Part shown: piece by piece, positions 1 through 10,369 of the stretch
How the letters are laid out: each line of letters begins with the position of its first letter
Numbering within the stretch: position 1 is the stretch's first letter
Assembly: GCA_044356215.1 (NCBI GenBank)
Contig: JBIKWQ010000096.1
Span: 1 to 10,460 of the forward strand
From: Bdellovibrionota bacterium
Lineage (GTDB): Bacteria > Bdellovibrionota_C > UBA2361 > OMII01
Length of the DNA: 10,460 nucleotides
Direction: 5' to 3'
The notes under the pieces: generated by a model
The model's database searches: none
What the model was told of the DNA's origin: nothing
What the model saw: the letters and a program-made list of their open reading frames with translations, nothing else
Program-made: the position numbers and the translations under genes

Positions 1-144
1 GCAATCACCGAAGTTTCCAAGCTCAAGTCTATTTATACGCGCTCGTATGACAGCTCTCGCTTTGACATCTTTCAAATGTAATAGCCAATCGAGAAAGGCG
101 CTCTTGCCACGCTTCTGCTCGTAAATAACTATCGTCTGATTCAT
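1..144 (-). CDS. RelE/ParE-superfamily addiction-module killer protein (HI1419/COG3657-like), 5' part; runs off the left edge
   Basis: Not in the ORF track. Manual translation from ATG 144 gives MNQTIVIYEQKRGKSAFLDWLLHLKDVKARAVIRARINRLELGNFGDC..., containing the family pattern F.DWL..LKD..A...I.ARI.RL..GNFGD. It has its own promoter. Confidence 0.85.
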   Translation of the reverse strand, partial: MNQTIVIYEQKRGKSAFLDWLLHLKDVKARAVIRARINRLELGNFGDC

Positions 145-150
145 ACCTAT

Positions 151-179
151 AATGTAGCTTTAAAGCTACTATGCGTCAA
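151..179 (-). promoter_or_regulatory. sigma70 promoter with palindromic operator for the left-edge TA operon
   Basis: Minus strand TTGACG-17 nt-TACATT-6 nt-ATG. A perfect 16-bp palindrome GTAGCTTTAAAGCTAC (154-169) overlaps the spacer and -10. Confidence 0.75.
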
Positions 180-209
180 GATTATAGTAAAACGTCCGTG
201 TTTTGAGTA

Positions 210-274
210 GGATAACAAAAGTGCCCACTCGGATTTCGACCTGCCGGTCGAAACCGGTGGCTCCGACATTATGC
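210..274 (+). mobile_element. attC-like cassette recombination site (R' degenerate)
   Basis: GGATAAC-AAAAG-TGCCCACT-CGG(A)TTTCGACC-TGCC-GGTCGAAACC-GGTGGCT-CCGAC-ATTATGC. R''/L''/L'/R' spacing with unpaired C and A; R' begins ATT instead of GTT. Confidence 0.7.
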
Positions 275-329
275 CATCTCGTTGCGCTTCACTCCTTGGT
301 GTGCTTTCATCGGCGACAGAGGTGAGGAC

Positions 330-1136
330 ATGATTCAGCCTGTACATTCCAACATTTTCTCAGAATTTAGCCATTTCGGAGACTCTCTGATAGCGAAGAC
401 TCGCGAGCTGGTGCTTTCCCTGTGGAGTAAAAACTCTATTCACTCTGAGCTGAAGGAGGATCAGACCCCGGTGAGCGAAGTTGATCTTCGCTGCGAAGAG
501 CTGGTTAGACGGCATGTAAGACAGGCATTCCCCTCTCATGGGATTGTAGGTGAGGAGTTCGGATGGGAGAACAAAGGAGCTGAATTTACATGGACTATTG
601 ATCCCATCGACGGCACTCAGAACCTCATTAATCGAATTCCAACCTTTGGAATCATCCTGGGACTCCTTCATAAAGGTCAGCCGATCCTGGGGTGGATTGA
701 TCATCCTGTCTTGGGGGATTCTCTTCGCGGTGGAGTGGGAGTGGGGACTTTTTTCAACGGCACCAAGGTAACCTTGAATGATATACCAGAGTCAGGGCTC
801 ACTCCGAACGATATAATTGCGACAAATTGCCCCGCGACATTTGCTAGAGGCGACCACTTGTCAGTTCTCGATGCGATTCTTCGGTTTCACCCATACTCCA
901 GGATCTACTACGACGTGTACTCTCACTCTCTCGCCATACGGGGTAGTCTCGCGGTAATGGTCGAATACAATCTTAAAATTTGGGATTTGTCGGCAACAAA
1001 GGCGCTTATTCTGGGCGCAGGGGGCGCATTTCAAGAGCTTGGTAGCGAAGAGCTGACTGACGGGATGAGGCTGTTTCACGCGGCATTTGGCAAGAAGCGA
1101 GCCGTGAATCTCATGGCACAAGCATTATTGGATTAG
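330..1136 (+). CDS. Inositol monophosphatase family protein (HisN-like histidinol-phosphatase possible)
   Basis: Motifs EVDLRCEE, GEE, WTIDPIDGT and KIWD. ATG 330 is preceded by GAGGTGAGG and is preferred to TTG 282. Confidence 0.88.
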   Translation: MIQPVHSNIFSEFSHFGDSLIAKTRELVLSLWSKNSIHSELKEDQTPVSEVDLRCEELVRRHVRQAFPSHGIVGEEFGWENKGAEFTWTIDPIDGTQNLINRIPTFGIILGLLHKGQPILGWIDHPVLGDSLRGGVGVGTFFNGTKVTLNDIPESGLTPNDIIATNCPATFARGDHLSVLDAILRFHPYSRIYYDVYSHSLAIRGSLAVMVEYNLKIWDLSATKALILGAGGAFQELGSEELTDGMRLFHAAFGKKRAVNLMAQALLD

Positions 1137-1179
1137 TTACGCGGCTCCTTTAAAGGGTATATCAGAGAGGCCGTGCTAA

Positions 1180-1188
1180 TGATACCGT
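1180..1188 (+). promoter_or_regulatory. Extended -10 promoter for the first brnT operon
   Basis: TGaTACCGT ends 6 nt before ATG 1195, the same spacing as three other TA promoters here. No good -35. Confidence 0.45.
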
Positions 1189-1194
1189 CAGACT

Positions 1195-1470
1195 ATGACT
1201 TTGCTCTTCGAATGGGACGCCTCCAAGGCCCGATCAAATATAAAAAAGCACGGAATCTCTTTTGAAGAGGCCACTACTATTTTCGGTGATCCACGAGCAA
1301 TTACCATTGAATCCTCAATAGTTAGCGGCGAGAAGAGACTGGTCACAATCGGCCGCTCTGCCAAAGGTCGGTTTGTCATAGTGGTGGTACATACCGATAG
1401 AAATGATAGAATAAGAGTTATAAGTGCTCGGCCCGCCAGCAGGGCGGAGCGGAAGCAATACGAGGGCTGA
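1195..1470 (+). CDS. brnT: BrnT-family ribonuclease toxin
   Basis: FEWD..KA.SN.KKHGISFEEA..IF.DP, E.R..TIG.S and IRVISAR.A...ERKQYE. Confidence 0.92.
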   Translation: MTLLFEWDASKARSNIKKHGISFEEATTIFGDPRAITIESSIVSGEKRLVTIGRSAKGRFVIVVVHTDRNDRIRVISARPASRAERKQYEG

Positions 1471-1474
1471 TGAT

Positions 1475-1684
1475 ATGAAGCAGGAATATGACTTCTCTGA
1501 GGGTGTACGGGGCAAATACTTCATGCGTTATCAGGCAGGCTCAAATGTGGTGATTCTCGATCCTGAAATTGCCAAGATATTTAAAGACTCTGCATCCGTA
1601 AATGACGCCCTCCGCGCTCTTATCCTAGCGGCCGGGCATAACAAGACTCTGCTGCGGACGCGCAAGGCGCGCCGCAGAGCGTAG
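1475..1684 (+). CDS. BrnA-like antitoxin; C-terminal tail encoded by the attC
   Basis: MKQEYDFSEGVRGKY...VILDPEIAKIF.DS.SVNDALRALI, starting 4 nt after brnT. ATG 1475 is preferred to the ORF-track start at 1424. Confidence 0.82.
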   Translation: MKQEYDFSEGVRGKYFMRYQAGSNVVILDPEIAKIFKDSASVNDALRALILAAGHNKTLLRTRKARRRA

Positions 1685-1692
1685 CGTCATCC
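1636..1692 (+). mobile_element. attC-like site overlapping the antitoxin 3' end
   Basis: GCATAAC-AAGAC-TCTGCTGC-GG(A)CGCGC-AAG-GCGCGCC-GCAGAGC-GTAGC-GTCATCC. R' reads GTC instead of GTT. Confidence 0.75.
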
Positions 1693-1710
1693 AGCTAAAC
1701 AAAGTAATGT

Positions 1711-2007
1711 ATGGGTTCAGAAGATATTCAAAACAAATTTAAAACTCGTGGGATTGGGCGAGGTGGAGCTCTTTTCCTGCGAGCAGATGGTGCACTCGAA
1801 TTAATTACCGAGGTAGATAATTCAAATTTACCAATTTTTGGAATCGAATGTTTTGTCTTAACTTCTGAGGAAGCCAAGCCATTACCTGGCCAGATGTTGG
1901 ACCTGTGGAATGGCGAAGCCGGAGATACCTGGGTGACGGCTAAAGAGCGCTTAAACTCGCGTGATGATAAAGGCTTTTGTTTTGAAGTCGTAGTTGGAGA
2001 TGCCTAA
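1711..2007 (+). CDS. Hypothetical protein resembling Imm40/colicin-E5-type immunity proteins
   Basis: 98 aa cassette-sized ORF starting 18 nt after R'. Pattern L.L...ALE.I......NLPIFGIECF.....W..AK..L.....FEVV recalls those immunity families (by eye only). Confidence 0.5.
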   Translation: MGSEDIQNKFKTRGIGRGGALFLRADGALELITEVDNSNLPIFGIECFVLTSEEAKPLPGQMLDLWNGEAGDTWVTAKERLNSRDDKGFCFEVVVGDA

Positions 2008-2014
2008 ACTGGCA

Positions 2015-2021
2015 GGATAAC
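2015..2021 (+). mobile_element. Isolated R'' box of a truncated attC
   Basis: GGATAAC lies 7 nt after the stop at 2007 and is near-complementary to this cassette's leading GTCATCC. The rest of the attC is absent. Confidence 0.4.
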
Positions 2022-2033
2022 ATATTAATCGCA

Positions 2034-2072
2034 ATAATAAGCCTTGCCTTATTATAAGCCCAAACTTATACT
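2034..2072 (+). promoter_or_regulatory. sigma70 promoter with two tandem ATAAG-N6-CTTAT operators
   Basis: TTGCCT(2044-2049)-17 nt-TATACT(2067-2072)-6 nt-GTG. Inverted repeats ATAATAAG-N6-CTTATTAT (2034-2055) and TATAAG-N6-CTTATA (2053-2070). Confidence 0.78.
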
Positions 2073-2078
2073 ATGTAG

Positions 2079-2411
2079 GTGAAGGTACGGTACTACAAAA
2101 CGGCGAGTGGTCGGAGCCCAGTAGAAGAGTTTATCTTGGGGCTGCCAGCCGCTACTCGGCTGGAAATCGTTGATGCGATAGTGCTTTTGCAGGGCGGGGC
2201 TCATTTATCAATGCCTCTGAGCAGGAACCTAGCTAGTATTAGACCGGGGCTTCATGAGTTGAGAGTTAGAGATCGGGCGGGACAGGTTCGGGTATTTTAT
2301 TACCTGAAGAGAGGTGAGGCGATTTACCTGATTCATGCTCTCCGCAAGAAGACTCAGCAGATCCCGGCGCGTGAGTTAGAGGTTGTGCTAAAAAGAATTA
2401 AGGAGATCTGA
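2079..2411 (+). CDS. RelE/ParE-family toxin (Gp49/DUF891, HigB-like toxin-first operon)
   Basis: YYKT.SGRSPV.EFI..L, L.MPLSR.L...GL.ELRV, RVFY and IYLIHA..KKTQ..P.RELE. Confidence 0.88.
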   Translation: MKVRYYKTASGRSPVEEFILGLPAATRLEIVDAIVLLQGGAHLSMPLSRNLASIRPGLHELRVRDRAGQVRVFYYLKRGEAIYLIHALRKKTQQIPARELEVVLKRIKEI

Positions 2412-2412
2412 T

Positions 2413-2694
2413 ATGCCGTGGAAAGAAATGAGTGTAGAGCAGCTGGCCAAATCTCTAGGAGCTAATGTGACAGAGGTGAGAGAAAAGCAGCGATTGATCA
2501 CTATGATCGTTAAAGTCCGAAAGGCAAAAAAAATGTCTCAGGCAGTATTGGCAAAGAAGCTAGGGGTGAGTCAGGCCCGGGTAGCCCAGATTGAAAGTGG
2601 CGTGGGGACGGCCAAGATAAGCTTCGATGTGATCTTTAGTATTTTAACGGCATTAGGATACGATTACAGAGTTACAACCCGTAAGGCGGCATGA
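2413..2694 (+). CDS. XRE-family HTH antitoxin
   Basis: RKAKKMSQAVLAKKLGVSQARVAQIESG helix-turn-helix. Starts 1 nt after the toxin stop; its TGA lies in the attC R'' box. Confidence 0.88.
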   Translation: MPWKEMSVEQLAKSLGANVTEVREKQRLITMIVKVRKAKKMSQAVLAKKLGVSQARVAQIESGVGTAKISFDVIFSILTALGYDYRVTTRKAA

Positions 2695-2744
2695 CAAAAA
2701 TATCCAGCAGAGGGCTGCCGCCTCTGCTGATACGGACGTTATCC
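2689..2744 (+). mobile_element. attC-like site
   Basis: GCATGAC-AAAAA-TATCCAGC-AGAGGGCTGCCGCCTCT-GCTGATA-CGGAC-GTTATCC. L'' minus one C is exactly complementary to L'; R'' reads GAC instead of AAC. Confidence 0.78.
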
Positions 2745-2770
2745 TGTATTCATAATTGGAAATTTTAGAT

Positions 2771-3112
2771 ATGCAATACGTGTTTAGAGAACCCAAGAAT
2801 CCCTCTTTTGAGAAGGTTGGAATTGTCGGACGGATATTCCCCAGTACATCTGCAAGTTCAAAGGTCGAATTCTTTACCGTTACTACTGAAACGGGTCATG
2901 AAACCGCAATCATCGAGCATGGATGTGATTTTTGCTATTACCTGCTCGAAGGCTCAGGAGTTTTTCTTATTAATGAATCGGAGCACCACTGTGAAAAAGG
3001 CGATCTTGTTGCGATTCCTCAGGGAACCAAATTTACTTATAGAGGAGCTCTTAGAATGTTTGTCGCCTCCGTACCACCTTGGAGCGAAGAGCAAGAAGAA
3101 ACTGTCGAATAG
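2771..3112 (+). CDS. Cupin-domain protein
   Basis: IEH.CDFCYYLLEGSG.F.IN and KGDLVAIPQGTKFTYRG cupin motifs. ATG 2771 preferred; TTG 2756 is the alternative. Confidence 0.8.
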   Translation: MQYVFREPKNPSFEKVGIVGRIFPSTSASSKVEFFTVTTETGHETAIIEHGCDFCYYLLEGSGVFLINESEHHCEKGDLVAIPQGTKFTYRGALRMFVASVPPWSEEQEETVE

Positions 3113-3180
3113 CTTTTACATATGAAGGGGTGATGAATTTAAATAAAAGTTGCCTATCTCAGCTGTGGTGATAGATTGAT

Positions 3181-3236
3181 GGATAACAAATCAACCCACT
3201 AGAGACTAAACGCTCTCGTGGCTTTGAACGTTATCC
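3181..3236 (+). mobile_element. attC-like site with intact cores
   Basis: GGATAAC-AAATC-AACCCACT-AGAGACTAAACGCTCT-CGTGGCT-TTGAAC-GTTATCC; R'' and R' are perfectly complementary. Confidence 0.8.
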
Positions 3237-3237
3237 T

Positions 3238-3569
3238 TTAAAAGCCGATCCTCGTTTTCTTCTGTTCGATCGGCTTCTCAAGTTGCGCGAGTAGAAATCG
3301 AATCTCTTGCAGCTCCTGCTCATGTTGCGCGAAGCCCTGAGCGAGGCGTTTCTCAATGTCTTGCAGGCGCCGCTTCAGCTCGCCGTGCTCGGCAAGCATC
3401 GTTCTCATGCGAATAAAGGTGCGCACGACCAGAATACTGGCGTGAATCGCGATCTGGCTGCTTAGGACGTTAGCGGCCATGACGGCACCATGCTCGGTAA
3501 ACACATATGGTCGATAGCGACGTCCGCCTTTAGGTGCATTTGAGGTCGCAAATTGCGACCTCAAACTTG
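3238..3569 (-). pseudogene. ORF6N-domain protein, 3' part (interrupted by group II intron)
   Basis: SLRSQFATS..GGRRYRPYVFTEHGAVMAANVL.S..A...SI.VVR.FI.MR, then a coiled coil and terminal KTRIGF. Joins in frame with 5608-5794. Confidence 0.88.
3539..3565. repeat. Perfect 13-bp inverted repeat inside the ORF6N coding sequence (intron target hairpin)
   Basis: TTTGAGGTCGCAA-A-TTGCGACCTCAAA, followed by CTTG and then the intron 5' end. Confidence 0.9.
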
Positions 3570-5607
3570 GTGCGAGTGGCATGTGTACGCGGTTCCGGTG
3601 AAAGACCGGAACGACGCCTTAACGGGAGGAAGTTAACACCTACGAGGCAAGGGCTTGCCCGCGAGGGTTGGTCGATTGGAAGCCTATGGTGAAGTATGAG
3701 CCTGAACGGATAGTGAAGCGTCTAAGAGGCTTAGAGGTGCGGGAGAGCGAGCCAACAGTCGCGAATCCCAATACCCGTTGGTAGCGCCCCTGAGTAGAGA
3801 CGACAGGTAGCATACGAAGCTGCGTACACTTACCCACTGAGAACTCTCGGCGTCCTGGTGGCAACACTAGGTAGGAACCGACTCGGGGAAGGCCCCAGGA
3901 ACCATAACGACGAGAGTAGTCGGATATCAGCATAGTACCCAAAGGGTCTTGAAAGAGACACCGAGTCCGCAGGTGACGAAAGCCGGTTAGGACAGGGAAG
4001 GCTGATACGGTAAGGAAAGAGGTGAGGCAACTAGGAATGTTTGGTAACAAAGCAGATAAATCTCGAAAGAGAACCGATTGTAAAGCGGGCGACAACCTAA
4101 TGACGCCTGTTCAGCAACCGGCCGCCAAGGTTACAAACAGGAAAGAGAATGCAACACCCGCAATAGTAATGGAGGAGGTAGCAAGTGTCGTAAATCTACA
4201 AAGTGCGTTTAGAAGAGTAGAACAGAACAGAGGAGCCCCTGGAGTGGACGGACAGAGTGTGGTGGCAGTAAGACAACACCTAACTGAAGTTCTCTTCAAA
4301 CTCTCCAAGAGCCTACTAGACGGGAGCTACAACCCAGGAGAAATCCGGCGGGTGTGGATACCAAAAGCAGGAGGAGGAGAGCGACCCTTAGGGATTCCCA
4401 ATGTGATAGACCGAGTAGTGCAACAAGCGCTTCTTCAAGTAATGCAACCAAACTACGAACCAACCTTTGATGACAGCAGCCACGGGTTTCGCCCTGGAAG
4501 GAGCTGCCATACAGCTATAGCGCAAGCTAAAGAGTATGTAAGGGATGGAAGCGAGTGGGTGGTGGACATAGACTTGGAGCGCTTTTTCGACACGGTGAAT
4601 CACCAAAGGTTACAGAGTAAGCTTGAACAGACGATAGAGGATAAGCGCATTATAAGACTGATAAAATTCATGCTGAAGGCGAAAGTTGTAATGCCGGATG
4701 GAGTGGTGATTGAAAATGAGCAGGGCACCCCACAGGGTGGCCCCCTGTCACCACTGCTGAGTAATATAGTGCTTAATGAGCTTGACCAAGAATTGCGGAA
4801 ACGTGGGCACAGCTTTGTTCGCTATGCCGACGATTGCAACATCTACGTAAGAAGTAAAGCAGCTGCGGAGAGAGTTTTAGAGAGTATATCACAGTTTATC
4901 GAACGGCGAATGCGCCTCAAGGTGAACAAAGTAAAGAGCGCGGTTGGCGAAACTGGCACGAGAAGTTTTCTGGGATTTAGCCTGGAATACAGTGTCGAAA
5001 CCGACTCAGTTGCCGTGAAACTCTCTGAAAAGAGCCTTAAGAAGATATCGCTCAAGATAGTGGAGAACTCACCCCGCAACTGGGGTGCCTCACTTGAAAG
5101 GTGCATTCTAAGCTGTAATCGATACCTGCGCGGATGGATGGAGTATTTCAAAATAATCAGTCCAACCGAACAACCGAAACTACAAAGATTAGATGCACAT
5201 CTACGCCGACGACTTCGAGCCATCCAGCTCAAGCAATGGCGGAGACGTAGGACGATAGTACAGCGCCTTACCCAACTTGGAGCGAGGAAAGCAACAGCGT
5301 GGCGCACGGTGTATGGAGGACGTAAATCCATCTGGCACCTGTCACATACCCCAGTAACACACCGAGCACTACGGAACGCATACTTTGCGAATCGAGGACT
5401 AGTGTCACTGGCGGAACGCTGGCAGCAAATTCAACCCAAACCTATTGTACAGATGCAGTTTGCGTTTGTATGACTTAGGTAGCAATACCGCTGGGGAACT
5501 ATGCCTCCGATGGAGGCAAACGTACCTAGCCCGAAGAGCCGTATGTGAGAACCACAAGTACGGTTCCGTGAGAGCAGGGGGAAGGTAACTTCCCCTAGCT
5601 ACTCGAC
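3570..5607 (+). mobile_element. Complete group II intron, IIC-like (2038 nt)
   Basis: 5' GTGCGAGTGGCATG. D3-like TATCAGCATAGTACCC...GGGAAGGCTGATA. D5 GAGCCGTATGTGAGAACCACAAGTACGGTTC (5536-5566). D6 5570-5604 with GTAA loop and bulged A5601. 3' end CTCGAC. Removal restores the host reading frame. Confidence 0.92.
4022..5473 (+). CDS. ltrA: Group II intron reverse transcriptase/maturase, no endonuclease domain
   Basis: GAPGVDG, IPK.GG.RPLGIP.V.DRVVQQA, SHGFRPGRS, VVDIDLERFFD, GTPQGGPLSPLL.NI, RYADD, FLGF and a class C-like thumb (RGW..YF; RRRLRAIQLKQW; AL.NAYF..RGL.SL). Start uncertain: 4022, 4037, 4100 or 4169. Confidence 0.95.
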   Translation: MRQLGMFGNKADKSRKRTDCKAGDNLMTPVQQPAAKVTNRKENATPAIVMEEVASVVNLQSAFRRVEQNRGAPGVDGQSVVAVRQHLTEVLFKLSKSLLDGSYNPGEIRRVWIPKAGGGERPLGIPNVIDRVVQQALLQVMQPNYEPTFDDSSHGFRPGRSCHTAIAQAKEYVRDGSEWVVDIDLERFFDTVNHQRLQSKLEQTIEDKRIIRLIKFMLKAKVVMPDGVVIENEQGTPQGGPLSPLLSNIVLNELDQELRKRGHSFVRYADDCNIYVRSKAAAERVLESISQFIERRMRLKVNKVKSAVGETGTRSFLGFSLEYSVETDSVAVKLSEKSLKKISLKIVENSPRNWGASLERCILSCNRYLRGWMEYFKIISPTEQPKLQRLDAHLRRRLRAIQLKQWRRRRTIVQRLTQLGARKATAWRTVYGGRKSIWHLSHTPVTHRALRNAYFANRGLVSLAERWQQIQPKPIVQMQFAFV

Positions 5608-5794
5608 CAACTTCTTGAACTTCCAGTTGAAACATGAAGTCCTCAGGGAAACGTTCGCGATTTCGCTTCACCTGTTCATTAAGGCGTTTTGTTGATGTCC
5701 CATACAGTCGAGCAAGGTCTTGATCGAGTATGACCCGTTGCCCCCTTATAGTGAGAATAGCGCCCTCTATATTCGTTGCTGTGTCTCGTTCCAT
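5608..5794 (-). pseudogene. ORF6N-domain protein, 5' part (interrupted by group II intron)
   Basis: IRGQRVILDQDLARLYGTSTKRLNEQVKRNRERFPEDFMFQL is the ORF6N signature. The ORF-track extension to 5405 is read-through into the antisense intron. Confidence 0.9.
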
Positions 5795-5846
5795 ATGGAG
5801 TATTAATCGACCATGCCCAGGGGAAGTTGCTTGATCGAGGGCAAGG

Positions 5847-5902
5847 TGATAACAATTGAAGCAAGCAGAGATCTACGCGTCTGCTGCTTCTAGCCGTTAT
5901 CT
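5847..5902 (+). mobile_element. attC-like site with intact cores
   Basis: TGATAAC-AATTG-AAGCAAGC-AGAGATCTACGCGTCT-GCTGCTT-CTAGCC-GTTATCT; the next ATG is 9 nt downstream. Confidence 0.78.
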
Positions 5903-5911
5903 CAAGAAATT

Positions 5912-6610
5912 ATGCTCCGAGCGCAACTAGAATCCGATCGATTCCACCACGAGTACTATTCAAGCCACGCTCTTTTCGAGGCAGGTACGTGGTTGGAAAA
6001 GCCGAACAGCTCCGTCATGGAGCTCGGCTCTTTCCTGGTAGGGAGAGATGGTGTCCGGGCTCTCGACTTAGGGGCCGGCGTTGGCAGAAACTCGATTCCG
6101 TTCGTTAAGTTGTTCGGTTCGGGAGCAGTGCTTTGCGACTGTGTGGAGATCTTGCCGATGGCGGTGGAGAAGCTGCGCGAAAATGCAAAAGTCTTCGACG
6201 TAGCGGACAGAATAGTACCGATTTGCTCAACAGTCTCCGAGTATCAGATAGCGCCGGAGGTATACGATCTAGTAATGGCGATGTCAGTGCTTGAGCACGC
6301 ATATGATCGCGATACTATCTCTAATGGAATAAGAACGATTCAGGCAGGTACCAAGATCGCCGGCTTTAACTGCCTTAGTTTCGCTACAGATTTAACAGAG
6401 ACTGACCTCGACACTGGACGAGCGCTAGAGCCACTCATTAGTACGCGGCTGTCAAAAGAAGAATGTCGCTCTCTTTTTTCCGCGCTCTACGCAGATTGGG
6501 AGATTCAAAAGTTAGACTTCTCTAGTTTTGGCGAGCAACTAAATCGGAACGGGAGAACGATTAGTTGGAGAGCGAATTATTGCATTTTCGTCGCTCGTAG
6601 AACTGGATAG
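5912..6610 (+). CDS. Class I SAM-dependent methyltransferase (TehB-like)
   Basis: Motif I ALDLGAGVGRNSI, acidic CVE after beta2, YDLVMAMSVLEH. The stop codon lies in the R'' box of the next attC remnant. Confidence 0.88.
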   Translation: MLRAQLESDRFHHEYYSSHALFEAGTWLEKPNSSVMELGSFLVGRDGVRALDLGAGVGRNSIPFVKLFGSGAVLCDCVEILPMAVEKLRENAKVFDVADRIVPICSTVSEYQIAPEVYDLVMAMSVLEHAYDRDTISNGIRTIQAGTKIAGFNCLSFATDLTETDLDTGRALEPLISTRLSKEECRSLFSALYADWEIQKLDFSSFGEQLNRNGRTISWRANYCIFVARRTG

Positions 6611-6675
6611 CAATACAAGGCAGATGGACCGCACCACGCCCGGGCTCTGGGCGGCCGCTGCTCGAAACCACATCG
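6605..6675 (+). mobile_element. Degenerate attC remnant (R' lost)
   Basis: GGATAGC-AATAC-AAGGCAGA-TGG(A)CCGC...GCGGCC-GCTGCTC-GAAAC, then CACATCG where GTT is expected. Confidence 0.5.
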
Positions 6676-6791
6676 ACTCAGCACTAAAATCCGAGTCTTC
6701 TCTCTTGGCCTCCGGTGGTTGCTCAAGTTTAGCTAATAGGAATCGTATTCCTGGAGCTCCTCCGCATGTTAAGTATTCTGATTGAGGGCCT

Positions 6792-8036
6792 ATGAAAAAG
6801 ACAATTAACGCGGATCGTTTCTTAAAAAACCTGAGGGACCAAGCGCGATTCGGCGATACCGATGATGGCGGAGTATCACGCACAGCAATGAGTCCGGAAG
6901 ATGTAGCGATACGACAATGGTTCCGGAGCATGATAGAGGCTGATAATTTTGAATACAAGTTTGACGGCGCGGGAAATCAATCTGCTATTTGGCGCTGTGA
7001 GATGCCACATGCCAAGACGCTTTTAATCGGCTCTCATCTCGATAGTGTTAAAAACGGCGGACGTTTTGATGGTGTTCTTGGCGTTCTGGCGGCATATGAA
7101 GTTCTTCTTACTCTAAGACAGTCGAAAGAGCGTCTTCCCTTTCACCTAGAGGTGGTTAATTTCACTGACGAAGAGGGAAGCATTCTGGGACAGATTGGGA
7201 GTTCCGCAGTGGCCGGGAGACTCTCTCTCGATCGACTTATGAACCCTCGTGGTGGTAGAGAGATCCTGATTGAAGGAATGAAGGGAATCGGTATCAGCGA
7301 CGAATCCGCTCTCAACGCAAAGCGTGATCCCTCTGAGGTTTTGGGGTATGTGGAAGTTCATATCGAACAGGGCACGCGATTAGAGAAAGCCAATCTGAAG
7401 ATCGGTGTCGTTTCGGCGATTGTTGGTCTGACCTCGTATCGACTACGCTTCCTCGGGGAGGCTGGGCATGCCGGAACAACTTCAATGCGGAATCGCAAAG
7501 ATGCCTTTCAAGGAGCAGCGGTATATTCAGAGCAAGCCAGGCGGCTAGTCATCGATCGATATGATCCAGGGGTCGTGAACTTCGGGGTGATATCAATAAG
7601 CCCAGGGCAGTTCAACCTCATTCCTGGTGAAGTCGTACTGGGGATGGAATTTCGCCATGGAGTACCTGGCGAATTAGCCTCCATGGAGCGAGAACTGCTC
7701 GACCTAGCCTCGCAGGTAGGTGACAAATATGGACTTAAGGTTGAATGTCAAGTGGTTGAGAAGTTGCCACCTACACTGATGTCTGAGCCGTTTATGGGAG
7801 CCGTTGAGCGGGCAGCCGATTCTCTTAACCTATCGCATACACGTCTGATGAGCTTTGCTGGACATGATTCACAGTCCCTCGCCGGATTTACGGAAACGGT
7901 GATGCTGTTTATCCCCTCTAAAGAGGGTATCAGTCACAATCCCCGAGAGTTTTCGAGTTCTGAGGACTGCGTTAACGGCGCAAACGCGCTTCTGCATACG
8001 GTCCTTGAGTTGGCCGCTTTAGAAAATGAAAAATAA
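6792..8036 (+). CDS. M20-family Zn-dependent amidohydrolase (allantoate amidohydrolase/N-carbamoyl-L-amino-acid hydrolase type)
   Basis: GSHLDSV..GG.FDG, DEEG, EVHIEQG, GHAGT, AGHD and GISHNPRE. RBS-like GAGG upstream. Confidence 0.93.
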   Translation: MKKTINADRFLKNLRDQARFGDTDDGGVSRTAMSPEDVAIRQWFRSMIEADNFEYKFDGAGNQSAIWRCEMPHAKTLLIGSHLDSVKNGGRFDGVLGVLAAYEVLLTLRQSKERLPFHLEVVNFTDEEGSILGQIGSSAVAGRLSLDRLMNPRGGREILIEGMKGIGISDESALNAKRDPSEVLGYVEVHIEQGTRLEKANLKIGVVSAIVGLTSYRLRFLGEAGHAGTTSMRNRKDAFQGAAVYSEQARRLVIDRYDPGVVNFGVISISPGQFNLIPGEVVLGMEFRHGVPGELASMERELLDLASQVGDKYGLKVECQVVEKLPPTLMSEPFMGAVERAADSLNLSHTRLMSFAGHDSQSLAGFTETVMLFIPSKEGISHNPREFSSSEDCVNGANALLHTVLELAALENEK

Positions 8037-8067
8037 TCGTGGTCGTAGCACTGCAGCAATAATTTTG

Positions 8068-8103
8068 TTGCACTGATTTAATTATAATTATACCATAATT
8101 ATA
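8068..8103 (+). promoter_or_regulatory. sigma70 promoter/operator of the second brnTA
   Basis: TTGCAC(8068-8073)-17 nt-TACCAT(8091-8096)-6 nt-ATG. Inverted repeat TATAATTAT-ACC-ATAATTATA (8083-8103). Confidence 0.65.
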
Positions 8104-8392
8104 TGAGCAAGCTTCAATTCATTTGGGATGAAGGCAAAGCCCTGGCAAATAAACGTAAGCATCATGTGACGTCTGATGAGGCGAAACCGTCTTCTATGAT
8201 GACAATGCGGAACTGATCGGAGATCCCGATTATTCTAGTCACGAAGATCGGTTTGTAATGCTCGGAATGAGTAGCCGCGCACGTGTTCTGATCGTGTGCC
8301 ACTGCTACAGGGAGAACAACGGGGTAATAAGAATTATTTCAGCCCGGAAAGAAACAAAAAATGAGCGGGCACAGTATCGGAGGTCCATATGA
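8103..8392 (+). pseudogene. brnT: Frameshifted BrnT-family toxin
   Basis: MSKLQFIWDEGKALANKRKHHVTSDEAK / TVFYDDNAELIGDPDYSSHEDRFVMLGMSSRARVLIVCHCYRENNGVIRIISARKETKNERAQYRRSI*. One base is missing at the A-run 8184-8186 (290 nt total), giving a premature TGA at 8214-8216. ATGA overlap with brnA. Confidence 0.88.
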
Positions 8393-8616
8393 GAAAAGAG
8401 TATGATTTTTCGAAAGGCATAAAGAATCCCTATATAAAGCGCCTGAAGAAGCAGATTACGATTCGTCTTGACGACTCCACCATCGAGTACTTCAAGGCTC
8501 TCGCTGAGGAAACCGACATCTCTTACCAGAATCTCATGAATTTTTACCTTAGAGAGTGCGCATCGCAGCGACGTAAGCCGCTTACTAGGTGGGTGAAAGG
8601 AAGCATACGCGGCTAA
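8389..8616 (+). CDS. brnA: BrnA-family (CopG/RHH) antitoxin
   Basis: MRKEYDFSKG.KNPY.K.LKKQITIRLD...IEYFK.LA.E..I.YQ.L.N.YLR.CA. Confidence 0.9.
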   Translation: MRKEYDFSKGIKNPYIKRLKKQITIRLDDSTIEYFKALAEETDISYQNLMNFYLRECASQRRKPLTRWVKGSIRG

Positions 8617-8624
8617 TAAATCCC

Positions 8625-8873
8625 CTAACCGCGCAATAAGCTATCGACTAATATATCCTCGTCGATACTTTCCCAGTGAATCCCTACCCCACCGCCAATG
8701 AGTCTCCACCCTTTTCTTTGTTTGGCAGTAGCCTTGCGCAGCCTCTCCGACCACTCAAGCGGCATACGAATTTCCCGACCGTCAGAAAGCATCACAACTA
8801 GGGAGCTTTTGGTGAATGAGACATCCTCTACGAGGGGCTCGAATGACAGTTTTCTATTCAGCGAAGAACTCAT
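8625..8873 (-). CDS. DUF2442-family protein (predicted antitoxin)
   Basis: V.L.DGREI..PL.W..RL..AT..QR..WRLIGGG.GIHWE.IDEDI.V..LL. ATG 8873 follows GAGGAGGT and is preferred to 8897. Confidence 0.85.
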   Translation of the reverse strand: MSSSLNRKLSFEPLVEDVSFTKSSLVVMLSDGREIRMPLEWSERLRKATAKQRKGWRLIGGGVGIHWESIDEDILVDSLLRG

Positions 8874-8904
8874 GCCACCTCCTCTCAAATAGCTCACGGT
8901 AACC
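8854..8904 (-). pseudogene. C-terminal remnant of a DUF4160-like partner gene
   Basis: Reads GYRELFERRWHEFFAE* overlapping the DUF2442 start, like the ending of DUF4160 proteins. Upstream sequence has no resemblance, and only about 60 nt remain before the next gene. Confidence 0.6.
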
Positions 8905-8963
8905 TTCGCATTTCCGCCATAGAGGCCAGAAACCGACGAGTTGAATTTGAGCCTTCAACGTCA

Positions 8964-9161
8964 TTATGCCGCAACGGTCTCGTACGAAAAATCTAGTTTC
9001 CCCTGCGCCTGCTTCGCATGCTCTATAGTCAGCACAACGACTTTGCCATCCTTATCGAGCTCCAAAAGCACATTGTCGTTAAGCTCTTCAGTTTGAGCAG
9101 GCTCTCTGTCGCTTAATTCAATGTAAAGAGTATCGGTGTCTTCAAAATATCTGACTTTCAT
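8964..9161 (-). CDS. DUF2283-family protein (predicted antitoxin)
   Basis: MKV.YF.DTDTLYIEL......T.EL..N.LL.LD..G.V...TIEHA. RBS AGGAG upstream. Confidence 0.85.
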   Translation of the reverse strand: MKVRYFEDTDTLYIELSDREPAQTEELNDNVLLELDKDGKVVVLTIEHAKQAQGKLDFSYETVAA

Positions 9162-9166
9162 CGCTC

Positions 9167-9408
9167 CTACTCCTTAAACTTTCGGTCGAAAAACGCGTTA
9201 TGCAATGTTTTGCCATCCTCTAGAAGGATGACTCTGTGATACCTGTTGCCCGCCTCGGCGATTTTACCCCACAGCCTTATTCTACCATCATCCTGAGTAG
9301 TTCTTCTACTTGGATTTCTTATCACTTCTCTAATCCATTCATCTTCAATAGCTCCACGATCGGGGAGAGAGCGGCTAAATTGGAAGTACTTAGTTTAGTG
9401 ACTTTCAT
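9167..9408 (-). pseudogene. Frameshifted DUF4258/RelE-like putative toxin partner of DUF2283
   Basis: Removing one copy of the tandem ACTAA (9390-9399) gives 78 aa MKVTKYFQFSRSLPDRGAIEDEWIREVIRNPSRRTTQDDGRIRLWGKIAEAGNRYHRVILLEDGKTLHNAFFDRKFKE*. As written it stops after 28 aa. Confidence 0.8.
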
Positions 9409-9449
9409 CTGATGCTAGTATGAGCTATCTCAATGAGTTAGTAGCCTAT

Positions 9450-9543
9450 GCATAACAATTCAATCCTCCAGATTGTCGCGCGTGAGTCTCGTGATAATAT
9501 GAGCTACATTAAAGCGCGACAACTACTGATTTATGCGTTATGT
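9450..9543 (+). mobile_element. attC-like site with intact cores and long variable loop (94 bp)
   Basis: GCATAAC-AATTC-AATCCTCC-AG(A)TTGTCGCGC...GCGCGACAACT-ACTGATT-TATGC-GTTATGT. Confidence 0.72.
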
Positions 9544-9560
9544 CTTTCTAAGTTTATGCG

Positions 9561-10280
9561 ATGAATCCCTCAGCCATCATCATTGGCGCATCATCGGGAA
9601 TCGGGGCAGCACTCGCTCTTGAGCTTAATTCTCATGGCTATTCTTTGGGACTTGCATCAAGGCGTACAGAGCTACTTCAAGAGCTCGCCTCAAAACTAAA
9701 GCACCGTGCTCACATTCGCGAACTAGATCTCGCTAATCCTGATGCAGCGGCGATTTCATTACGACAGCTTATCGACGAGATGAAGGATGTCGAACTGATT
9801 ATCATTTCGGCAGGTACTGGCTTTAACAATCCGAAGCTGGAGTGGGGCCCCGAATTGAATACCATTTCGGTCAACGTGACCGGCTTTGCTCGTGTCGTCA
9901 ATGTCATCGTCGAGTATTTCGAGCAGAGAGGCAGTGGGCATCTCGCTGCCATAACCTCGATCTGCGCGATTCGAGGTCATGGTGATGCGCCTGCATATGG
10001 TGCTTCAAAGGCATTCATGTCCAACTACCTCGGCTCTATTCGGCACCGATTCCGAGGGAAGAATCTTCCCATTTACGTTACGGAGATATGTCCTGGGTAT
10101 GTCGATACTGCCATGGCACAAGGAACTTCGTTATTTTGGGTTGCGTCGGTGCAAACGGCAGCAAAGCAGATTGTGCGAGCTCTGAAGGATCGTCGTGGCC
10201 ACGTGTACGTGACTAAGAGATGGAGACTAGTAGCGTGGCTTTTACGAGTTACTCCTTATGCATTGTACCGGAGGGGATGA
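9561..10280 (+). CDS. Short-chain dehydrogenase/reductase (SDR)
   Basis: GASSGIG Rossmann motif, SAG, catalytic YGASK and PGYVDT.M. Confidence 0.93.
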   Translation: MNPSAIIIGASSGIGAALALELNSHGYSLGLASRRTELLQELASKLKHRAHIRELDLANPDAAAISLRQLIDEMKDVELIIISAGTGFNNPKLEWGPELNTISVNVTGFARVVNVIVEYFEQRGSGHLAAITSICAIRGHGDAPAYGASKAFMSNYLGSIRHRFRGKNLPIYVTEICPGYVDTAMAQGTSLFWVASVQTAAKQIVRALKDRRGHVYVTKRWRLVAWLLRVTPYALYRRG

Positions 10281-10298
10281 ATAAGGTGGGCATTGGCA

Positions 10299-10369
10299 AC
10301 ATGACATCGATTGAATCAACTCGAGATGCCGCCCTGGTGGCGAGTTTCGGGTTATCGTTAGCGTTATAC
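10299..10369 (+). mobile_element. attC-like site (R'' degenerate)
   Basis: ACATGAC...AATCAACT-CGAGATGCCGCC-CT-GGTGGCGAGTTTCG-GGTTATC-GTTAGC-GTTATAC. ACATGAC nearly complements the SDR cassette's leading GTTATGT; the R''-L'' spacer is 8 nt rather than 5. Confidence 0.6.

Follow-up and report, generated by a model that had tools for sequence, protein, structure and literature searches.

The stretch of DNA analyzed here, hereafter the window, is the entire contig JBIKWQ010000096.1 (C115; 10,460 nt) of a Bdellovibrionota bacterium assembly (GCA_044356215.1; 3.24 Mb, 96% complete), and it is also contained in lake and freshwater metagenome runs, among which no RNA run is listed. Almost certainly, the window is an integron cassette array; a group II intron interrupts one of its cassettes. 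In what follows, G000 denotes the genome of the window, other G-numbers (G003, G010, etc.) denote relatives of the same genus, and C-numbers denote contigs. No tyrosine recombinase gene was found on the contig, so there is no intI and attI adjoining the array as in a complete integron. With more than one attC site and no intI nearby, the contig itself qualifies as an attC cluster that has no integron-integrase (CALIN), although both window ends are assembly breaks and "no nearby intI" holds for these 10.5 kb alone. An earlier note on this DNA, made from the sequence of the window only, had proposed a chromosomal integron or such an integrase-less cluster.

Six attC sites, all on the + strand, lie at 210-274, 1636-1692, 2689-2744, 3181-3236, 5847-5902 and 9450-9543. 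The earlier note had described eight hairpins of attC layout in the same orientation; six of these are whole attC sites, whereas the other two are broken. That is, the site at 6605-6668 (attC 6, +; R'' GGATAGC) has lost its R' and, aligned to the intact site in G010, stops exactly where G|TT would begin, and the site at 10299-10369 (attC 8, +), which belongs to another cassette, lacks its R'' owing to an 11-nt deletion that took out the true R'' present in a relative. R'' AAC and R' GTT triplets pair in three of the eight sites (3181, 5847 and 9450, i.e., attC 4, 5 and 7, the last 94 nt long), and three sites have one base of the core triplets altered: attC 1 at 210 (R'' GGATAAC, R' ATTATGC, with ATT in place of GTT and thus A at the crossover G), attC 2 at 1636 (R'' GCATAAC, R' GTCATCC, with GTC here and GTT in relatives) and attC 3 at 2689 (R'' GCATGAC, R' GTTATCC, with GAC). 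Three further attC sites have been deleted outright (behind a second ORF6N remnant, at ~8598 and behind a short-chain dehydrogenase/reductase (SDR) gene), and the array is decaying. The A for G at the crossover (window 268 and 8963; C36 and C49) recurs in several sites of the genome and its relatives.

The sites were scored with two covariance models whose E-values are rough: R1, built from five sites on other contigs of the same genome, and R2, built from 35 sites of relatives and one metagenome contig. R1 gave 31.7 bits for the 1636 site, 22.8 for 2689 and 16.3 for 3181, with weak scores for 210, 5847 and 10299. R2 gave 58.3 bits for 1636 (not an independent value, since the 35 training rows include five with 94-98% identity to this site), 39.1 for 2689, 33.4 for 210, 22.4 for 3181, 16.2 for 5847 and 15.7 for 9450, compared to 7.5 bits for the top minus-strand match in the window; the 6605 and 10299 sites were not found by R2 at E<=10. 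The earlier note had staked its reading on covariance-model support, and these models of our own provide it for six sites. The R2 alignment, although it was fitted to structure, displays covariation, with 81.8% of cells paired vs. 24-51% in slid controls; an Rfam scan of the window returned no attC family match. The bottom-strand folding that the note had also proposed shows the expected hairpin with L boxes, an unpaired spacer and an extrahelical base, with z <= -2.3 in five of the eight sites (-3.7 at 210, -2.4 at 1636, -3.1 at 2689, -5.4 at 3181 and -3.0 at 5847), -1.5 at 9450, and shuffle-level values of -0.5 at both 6605 and 10299. Two other attC-like hairpins, at 1131-1180 and near 8896-8946, were rejected, being supported by neither model and the second being a coding remnant; rule-based attC scans of whole genomes (415, 61 and 190 hits) were mostly false and were used only for the choice of seeds.

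The window opens with the 3' end (in array sense) of an inverted HI1419/HI1420-type toxin-antitoxin cassette (1..268, -), with the toxin start at 1-144 (-; TIGR02683, E 5e-08, below the cut-off as a fragment) and a promoter-like site at 179-151 (-; promoter scan); homology to this cassette in seven loci of relatives ends at 261-275. Two cassettes with several genes follow. The first (269..1686, +) carries an inositol-monophosphatase/HisN-like gene (330-1136, +; PF00459), BrnT (1195-1470, +; PF04365) and a BrnA-like gene (1475-1684, +); the second (1687..2738, +) carries an Imm40-like open reading frame (ORF; 1711-2007, +), a lead with an Atlas value of 0.82 to Imm40 clusters, below the tool's 0.9 line, and a Gp49/HigB-type toxin (2079-2411, +; PF05973) with its helix-turn-helix antitoxin (2413-2694, +; PF01381), a HigBA pair with its own predicted promoter (2044-2072, +; promoter scan). 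Next come a cupin cassette (2739..3230, +; ORF 2771-3112, weak Pfam cupin matches), whose final 100 nt including attC 4 recur on C49 and C87 behind ORF6N genes, and an inverted ORF6N cassette (3231..5896, -), which the intron splits into halves at 5608-5794 and 3238-3569, both matching PF10543. Intron-less copies of the latter cassette in relatives start at 3223-3239 and end at 5889-5904.

Further along the array, an S-adenosylmethionine (SAM)-methyltransferase cassette (5897..6668, +; ORF 5912-6610, Pfam methyltransferase) ends in the broken attC 6, and behind it lies the C-terminus remnant of a second inverted ORF6N cassette (6670..6775, -), recognized by repeat D3, its translation and matches in four loci of relatives. 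The following cassette (6782..8598, +) has lost both ends; it consists of a hydantoinase/carbamoylase-family amidase gene (6792-8036, +; TIGR01879 over the cut-off), a frameshifted BrnT (8103-8392, +) and BrnA (8389-8616, +). Seven homology ends fall at 8597-8598, the place of its deleted attC, and in G006 the amidase-BrnTA unit opens with GTTCTGC and closes in an attC with R'' GCAGAAC. The rest of the window comprises a truncated inverted DUF2442 toxin-antitoxin cassette (8599..8962, -; DUF2442 gene 8625-8874, -, PF10387, with a 97% match in G010 over 8596-8900), whose partner gene is a C-terminal remnant; an inverted DUF2283 two-gene cassette (8964..9537, -; genes 8964-9161 and 9167-9412, PF10049); an SDR cassette (9538..10280, +; ORF 9561-10280, PF00106), whose own attC is missing here and present in G006; and the start of a cassette at 10364 (+; ORF from 10383) that is duplicated on C92. 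As the earlier note had it, ORFs start 9-26 nt behind R' at five sites (18, 11/26, 9, 17 and 13 nt), and stop codons fall inside R'' at 2694 and 6610. What it missed is the 2,038-nt intron and the two-part organization of several cassettes: three of them (269..1686, 1687..2738 and 6782..8598) combine a passenger gene with a toxin-antitoxin pair that is self-promoted, and the toxin-antitoxin tails carry other passengers in relatives. The capture of passengers by toxin-antitoxin cassettes through attG insertion is not supported, as relatives do not conserve the GTT at 1136 and the tails have no core at their left edge. A heritable compensated GAC/GTC core in the HigBA cassette was rejected, given that G009 has the same R'' and a leading GTTATGC.

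In the relatives, homology to the window often ends at the boundaries between these cassettes. We searched the window, minus the intron, against 35 genomes of the genus, leaving loci of the window's own genome out of the counts of segment ends. Of 120 ends of homologous segments, 21 fell at the intron junctions; among the 99 others, 50 were within 8 nt of the eight predicted G|TT crossovers vs. 1.6% expected for uniformly placed ends, keeping in mind that kin are not independent and that the crossover at 8963 was itself spotted through the copy on C36. Ten such ends lie at the crossover of attC 5 alone. Cassettes recur in other genomes of the genus with other neighbors, and gene order is not conserved; the earlier note had named conserved order without cassette-precise edges as what would speak against it, and the opposite was found. 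Four units run from G|TT to G|TT between different neighbors (the unit ending at 268, and 269-1686, 3231-5896 and 8964-9537). For instance, in G010 the phosphatase-BrnTA unit (269-1687, 91% identical) lies directly behind an attI, and the DUF2283 cassette has a 93.6% identical copy on C36 between other neighbors (homology 8965-9542) and, in relatives, seven left and seven right homology ends at its crossovers. Two cassettes have 94-97% identical copies elsewhere in the same genome, with edges at the crossovers, and population contigs branch from the window at crossovers 273, 1687, 3232-3234 and 8965.

A second kind of evidence is the match between the leading R' of a cassette and its own R'', as expected for units that were once circles. 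With corrected units, 36 of 42 bases match across six cassettes, a value reached by 12 of 720 permutations, and in a 15-cassette array of G010 the agreement is 99 of 105 bases, a level reached by none of 10,000 shuffles. The earlier note had rested this expectation on four matching pairs: those of the cupin and methyltransferase cassettes stand, whereas the other two are coincidences. That is, the GGATAAC at 2015 assigned to the Imm40-like gene lies within the leader of the HigBA pair, with no attC behind it, and the ACATGAC assigned to the SDR gene is not an R'', the true one being deleted. Taken together, the observations of the note are partly confirmed and its interpretation is supported: the window is an array without an adjacent integrase, with six model-supported sites and cassette-precise boundaries in relatives.

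While the search for IntI in the flanks of the array, which the note had proposed, found none on the contig, an intact IntI is encoded elsewhere in the genome. One gene, on C13 (L001:1276-2664), exceeds the integron-integrase cut-off (TIGR02249, 435 bits vs. a cut-off of 265); its catalytic R-K-H-R-H-Y motifs, with residue roles that we presume, and the IntI-specific insert were located. This IntI has an N-terminal DUF5710 domain, a fusion that is complete in 3 of 124 genomes of the class, all of this genus, with partial matches in a fourth; a literature search for DUF5710 gave one unrelated listing. The C13 attI has a GTTCTGC core that matches R'' GCAGAAC of its first cassette, and the contig ends before the C13 array does, at a multicopy element that occupies an attC crossover. 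A second attI type is present in five promoter-attI copies (C5, C51, C55, C92 and C130), with no intact intI found beside them. We consider these solo copies to be attI sites, as the same motif adjoins a full intI in G004, G043 and G003 and cassettes are joined at its G|TT; in the genome of the window, the intI matching this type is an internally deleted pseudogene remnant on C74. The first cassette of the window begins on C130, with a 61-nt gap to the window, and also on C51, and on each of these contigs the solo attI type stands at the head, separated from the window's cassette by no more than one other; therefore, the window likely descends from one of them. A run-X1 contig of about double depth, as expected for a two-copy cassette, runs 187 nt past the end of C130; runs X1 and X2 also show the other exit of this duplicated cassette, which could not be located in the assembly. 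The first cassette behind the C130 attI (L289:406-1929) encodes a 507-aa protein that is OLD/AAA-type ATPase-like by eye, a possible phage-defense cassette, and the C51 attI follows a glycosyltransferase gene.

Solo attI copies are common across the genus. IntI genes (E<=1e-40) were found in 14 of the 24 other genomes examined, and two attI patterns occur at 31 and 22 places in 35 genomes (0 for reversed-pattern controls), of which 51 were examined, one of the 53 having no locus and one being a false match. A full-length intI lies <=1.5 kb away from 11 of these 51 sites; for 33, the 1.5 kb upstream has no full-length intI, some with intI 5' remnants; and seven are too near a contig end. The genus has at least three integrase/attI types, and one genome holds seven copies of one attI type. 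In two relatives (G047, L277, C49; G019, L263, C271), an attC within an array is immediately followed by a 1-kb block made up of an inverted ORF6N gene, an intI 5' remnant, the promoter region and attI. A similar ORF6N plus intI remnant block, with the attI end lost, is present in the genome of the window (C92:41050-41870). The cores directly behind attI, which are independent of our attC models, start with GTTAT in 36 of the 51 cases and fit GTTRRRY in five, as the earlier note had suspected from the window. Repeats of Vibrio also end in GTTAT, and the bias is probably not unusual; a literature search on the GTTATGC core returned only primer listings.

We favor the interpretation, at a probability of roughly 0.65, that the window is the decaying middle of a chromosomal array that started from an integrase-less promoter-attI platform and whose cassettes were moved by an integrase encoded elsewhere. 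IntI recognizes attC by structure and joins it with another attC or with attI (portions of PMC4889954), the crossover falling between the core's first and second bases (portions of PMC8876359). Accordingly worded for this locus, IntI would recombine the folded bottom strand of an attC with another attC or attI, cassettes would be cut out and inserted at the G|TT crossovers by the integrase encoded elsewhere in the genome, the array would continue from a promoter-attI platform without an adjoining integrase gene, an integrase with another attI type may serve it in trans, and self-promoted toxin-antitoxin pairs may retain otherwise silent cassettes. The parts of this interpretation differ in strength: a solo attI probably heads the array, whereas the chances that the array is still being reshuffled in trans appear evenly balanced. 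Hence, the reading of the earlier note as a bare CALIN holds for the contig, but the array most likely descends from a solo attI platform and not from a bare attC cluster. Several observations weigh against our interpretation. No contig or read joins the window to any attI; C130 has 339 nt upstream of its attI, and an adjoining intI is directly excluded only for C51, C55 and C5. The attI type of the intact C13 IntI differs from that of the five solo copies, and at 96% completeness the assembly may lack a further intI. The branch-offs of population contigs may reflect other strains or the known duplicates on C36 and C49, and among the population-contig joints listed there is no joint that skips exactly one cassette. 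Finally, the damage to five of the eight sites (altered or broken) and the loss of three additional attC sites fit an inactive relic just as well.

Such a frozen relic, in which several complete second-type integrons once occupied separate loci, intI was lost from every one of them and the sites no longer recombine, is in our view unlikely, but it is supported by the pseudogene state of the cognate intI, the intI 5' remnants kept by some solo attI copies in relatives and the heavy decay in the window, and portions of PMC4889954 list intI loss as an origin of CALINs. It is opposed by the intact IntI in the genome, by the many solo copies without an intI remnant within 1.5 kb, and by the two cassettes whose copies elsewhere in this genome are 94-97% identical and are bounded at the crossovers. 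Less probable still is that the window is the far part of the complete C13 integron, severed by the assembly at repeated elements. The C13 array does run off its contig at the multicopy element, and arrays break at such repeats on C9, C55, C109, C36, C49 and C72; however, the left end of the window continues the cassette of C130/C51, which are headed by the other attI type, unless the connection runs via C130, given that relatives can have this attI type in the interior of arrays.

Growth of the cluster by successive cassette insertions at secondary attG sites, with no attI involved, is very improbable. IntI can insert cassettes at GWT sites (portions of 10.1101/2022.09.11.507474), and C87 has an attC fused to a GAT core, but both candidate upstream contigs carry attI, and a conserved GTT core is absent from the left edges of the toxin-antitoxin tails; the junctions of the solo attI platforms, inspected for a GWT start, were too diverged. 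An origin of the hairpins by chance, as terminator-like structures within a toxin-antitoxin island, can practically be dismissed: although two sites fold no better than shuffles and the promoter/terminator scan gave shuffle-level counts of both features in the window, the cassette-precise boundaries in relatives refute it, and the covariance models built off the window and the R'/R'' agreement oppose it as well. Beyond the favored origin from a solo attI platform, a broader model can be sketched, which we hold only tentatively and regard as doubtful: a distributed integron, in which platforms spread alone, partly as cassette-like ORF6N, intI remnant, promoter and attI blocks, many arrays with separate expression depend on one or two integrases for loading and reshuffling, and toxin-antitoxin tails fused to passengers hold the arrays.

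The element is of a known kind, an integron array/CALIN, whose multi-platform arrangement is less described. It is well known that arrays can lie at a distance from intI (portions of 10.1101/2025.06.18.660453). Compared to a CALIN as defined in portions of PMC4889954, the array here likely has a promoter-attI of its own at its head; that definition takes no account of attI, since most attI sequences are unknown. It shares with the sedentary chromosomal integrons of Vibrio and Xanthomonas, as described in excerpts of 10.1101/2025.06.18.660453 and PMC8876359, self-promoted and often inverted toxin-antitoxin cassettes, environmental cargo, a decayed intI and extra arrays at other loci, but differs from them in that the attC sites are diverse and not a homogeneous repeat, the cores favor GTTAT, and the genus has at least three integrase/attI types with up to seven copies of one attI type per genome. 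The attI-type/delta-attI cassettes of mobile integrons (portions of PMC12901181) are similar in that attI can bound an IntI-recombined unit, comparable to the 1-kb blocks in the two relatives; those cassettes belong to class 1/2 resistance integrons, however, whereas here whole promoter-attI platforms are found at many chromosomal loci. A narrow, mostly open-access literature search found no paper on many solo promoter-attI copies per genome. The array itself is ordinary and decaying, and it is the setting that matters: if integrase-less arrays commonly keep a promoter and attI, many "CALINs" would be expression-ready satellite platforms, and a cell with one integrase could express several first-position cassettes at once. 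Detection tools miss such satellite platforms because most attI sequences are unknown (portions of PMC4889954). With its defined attI motifs, intact integrases and shared cassettes, the genus allows use in trans to be tested directly.

The group II intron in the ORF6N cassette (3570..5607, +; 2,038 nt; Rfam RF02001 and RF00029) encodes a reverse transcriptase (RT)/maturase (4022-5473, +; TIGR04416 over the cut-off). Its insertion point within the coding sequence of ORF6N follows a 27-nt palindrome (3539-3565) at a distance of 4 nt, so that it sits behind a stem-loop as group IIC introns do, and it lies 240 nt from the nearest attC and not in an attC as group IIC-attC introns do; the empty junction is present on C124, in relatives and in run X4. 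In many copies of the ORF6N gene (window 3539-3565; C49, C92 and C124; relatives), the codons for LRSQFATS make up a DNA palindrome that is nearly perfect. In a quick tree, the intron falls within an 11-row clade (loci L120, L122, L043-L050 and L103) that has 95% support by SH-aLRT, an approximate likelihood ratio test, and is allied to class C, and clade members with a visible 5' end follow hairpins. Its domain 5 starts with an AGC-type triad common to the clade, whereas other class C rows have CGC. The CGC triad in domain 5 is a group IIC feature. We rejected a specialization in ORF6N palindromes: none of 79 related intron loci has ORF6N nearby and the relatives follow assorted hairpins, which therefore argues for generic hairpin targeting. 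Relative to the group IIC and IIC-attC introns described in excerpts of PMC4424553, the intron shows the same hairpin-adjacent insertion, a few bases behind the hairpin, and is IIC-like in that its RT is closest to GsI-IIC among solved structures and has no endonuclease domain match, but its target is a palindrome in coding sequence and not an attC or terminator, and its domain 5 is of AGC type. A literature search gave no paper on ORF6N together with a group II intron. A shortened, ORF-deleted version of the intron (joint 4173 to 5430) is present at higher depth in runs X1-X3.

The assembly of several arrays is broken because a multicopy 2.4-kb element is inserted there. The element encodes a tyrosine recombinase (304 aa) and a transposase (393 aa) that, by its motifs, we take to be IS91-like, has terminal inverted repeats and its own attC-like hairpin, and sits precisely at attC crossovers. 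In the genome of the window it is found at the left ends of C9, C13, C55 and C109 and at the right ends of C36, C49 and C72; a complete copy is at L041:126-2530 (locus in reverse orientation), and at L038 and L039 the IS91-like element is directly preceded, in array orientation, by a class C intron. An ISShvi3 adjoining an attC is mentioned in portions of PMC9229058. Separately, a 76-nt palindromic repeat family is dispersed over dozens of contigs of the genome (e.g., C3:35-109 and C7:4257-4332), and one copy occupies the expected attI place of the C74 pseudo-integron.

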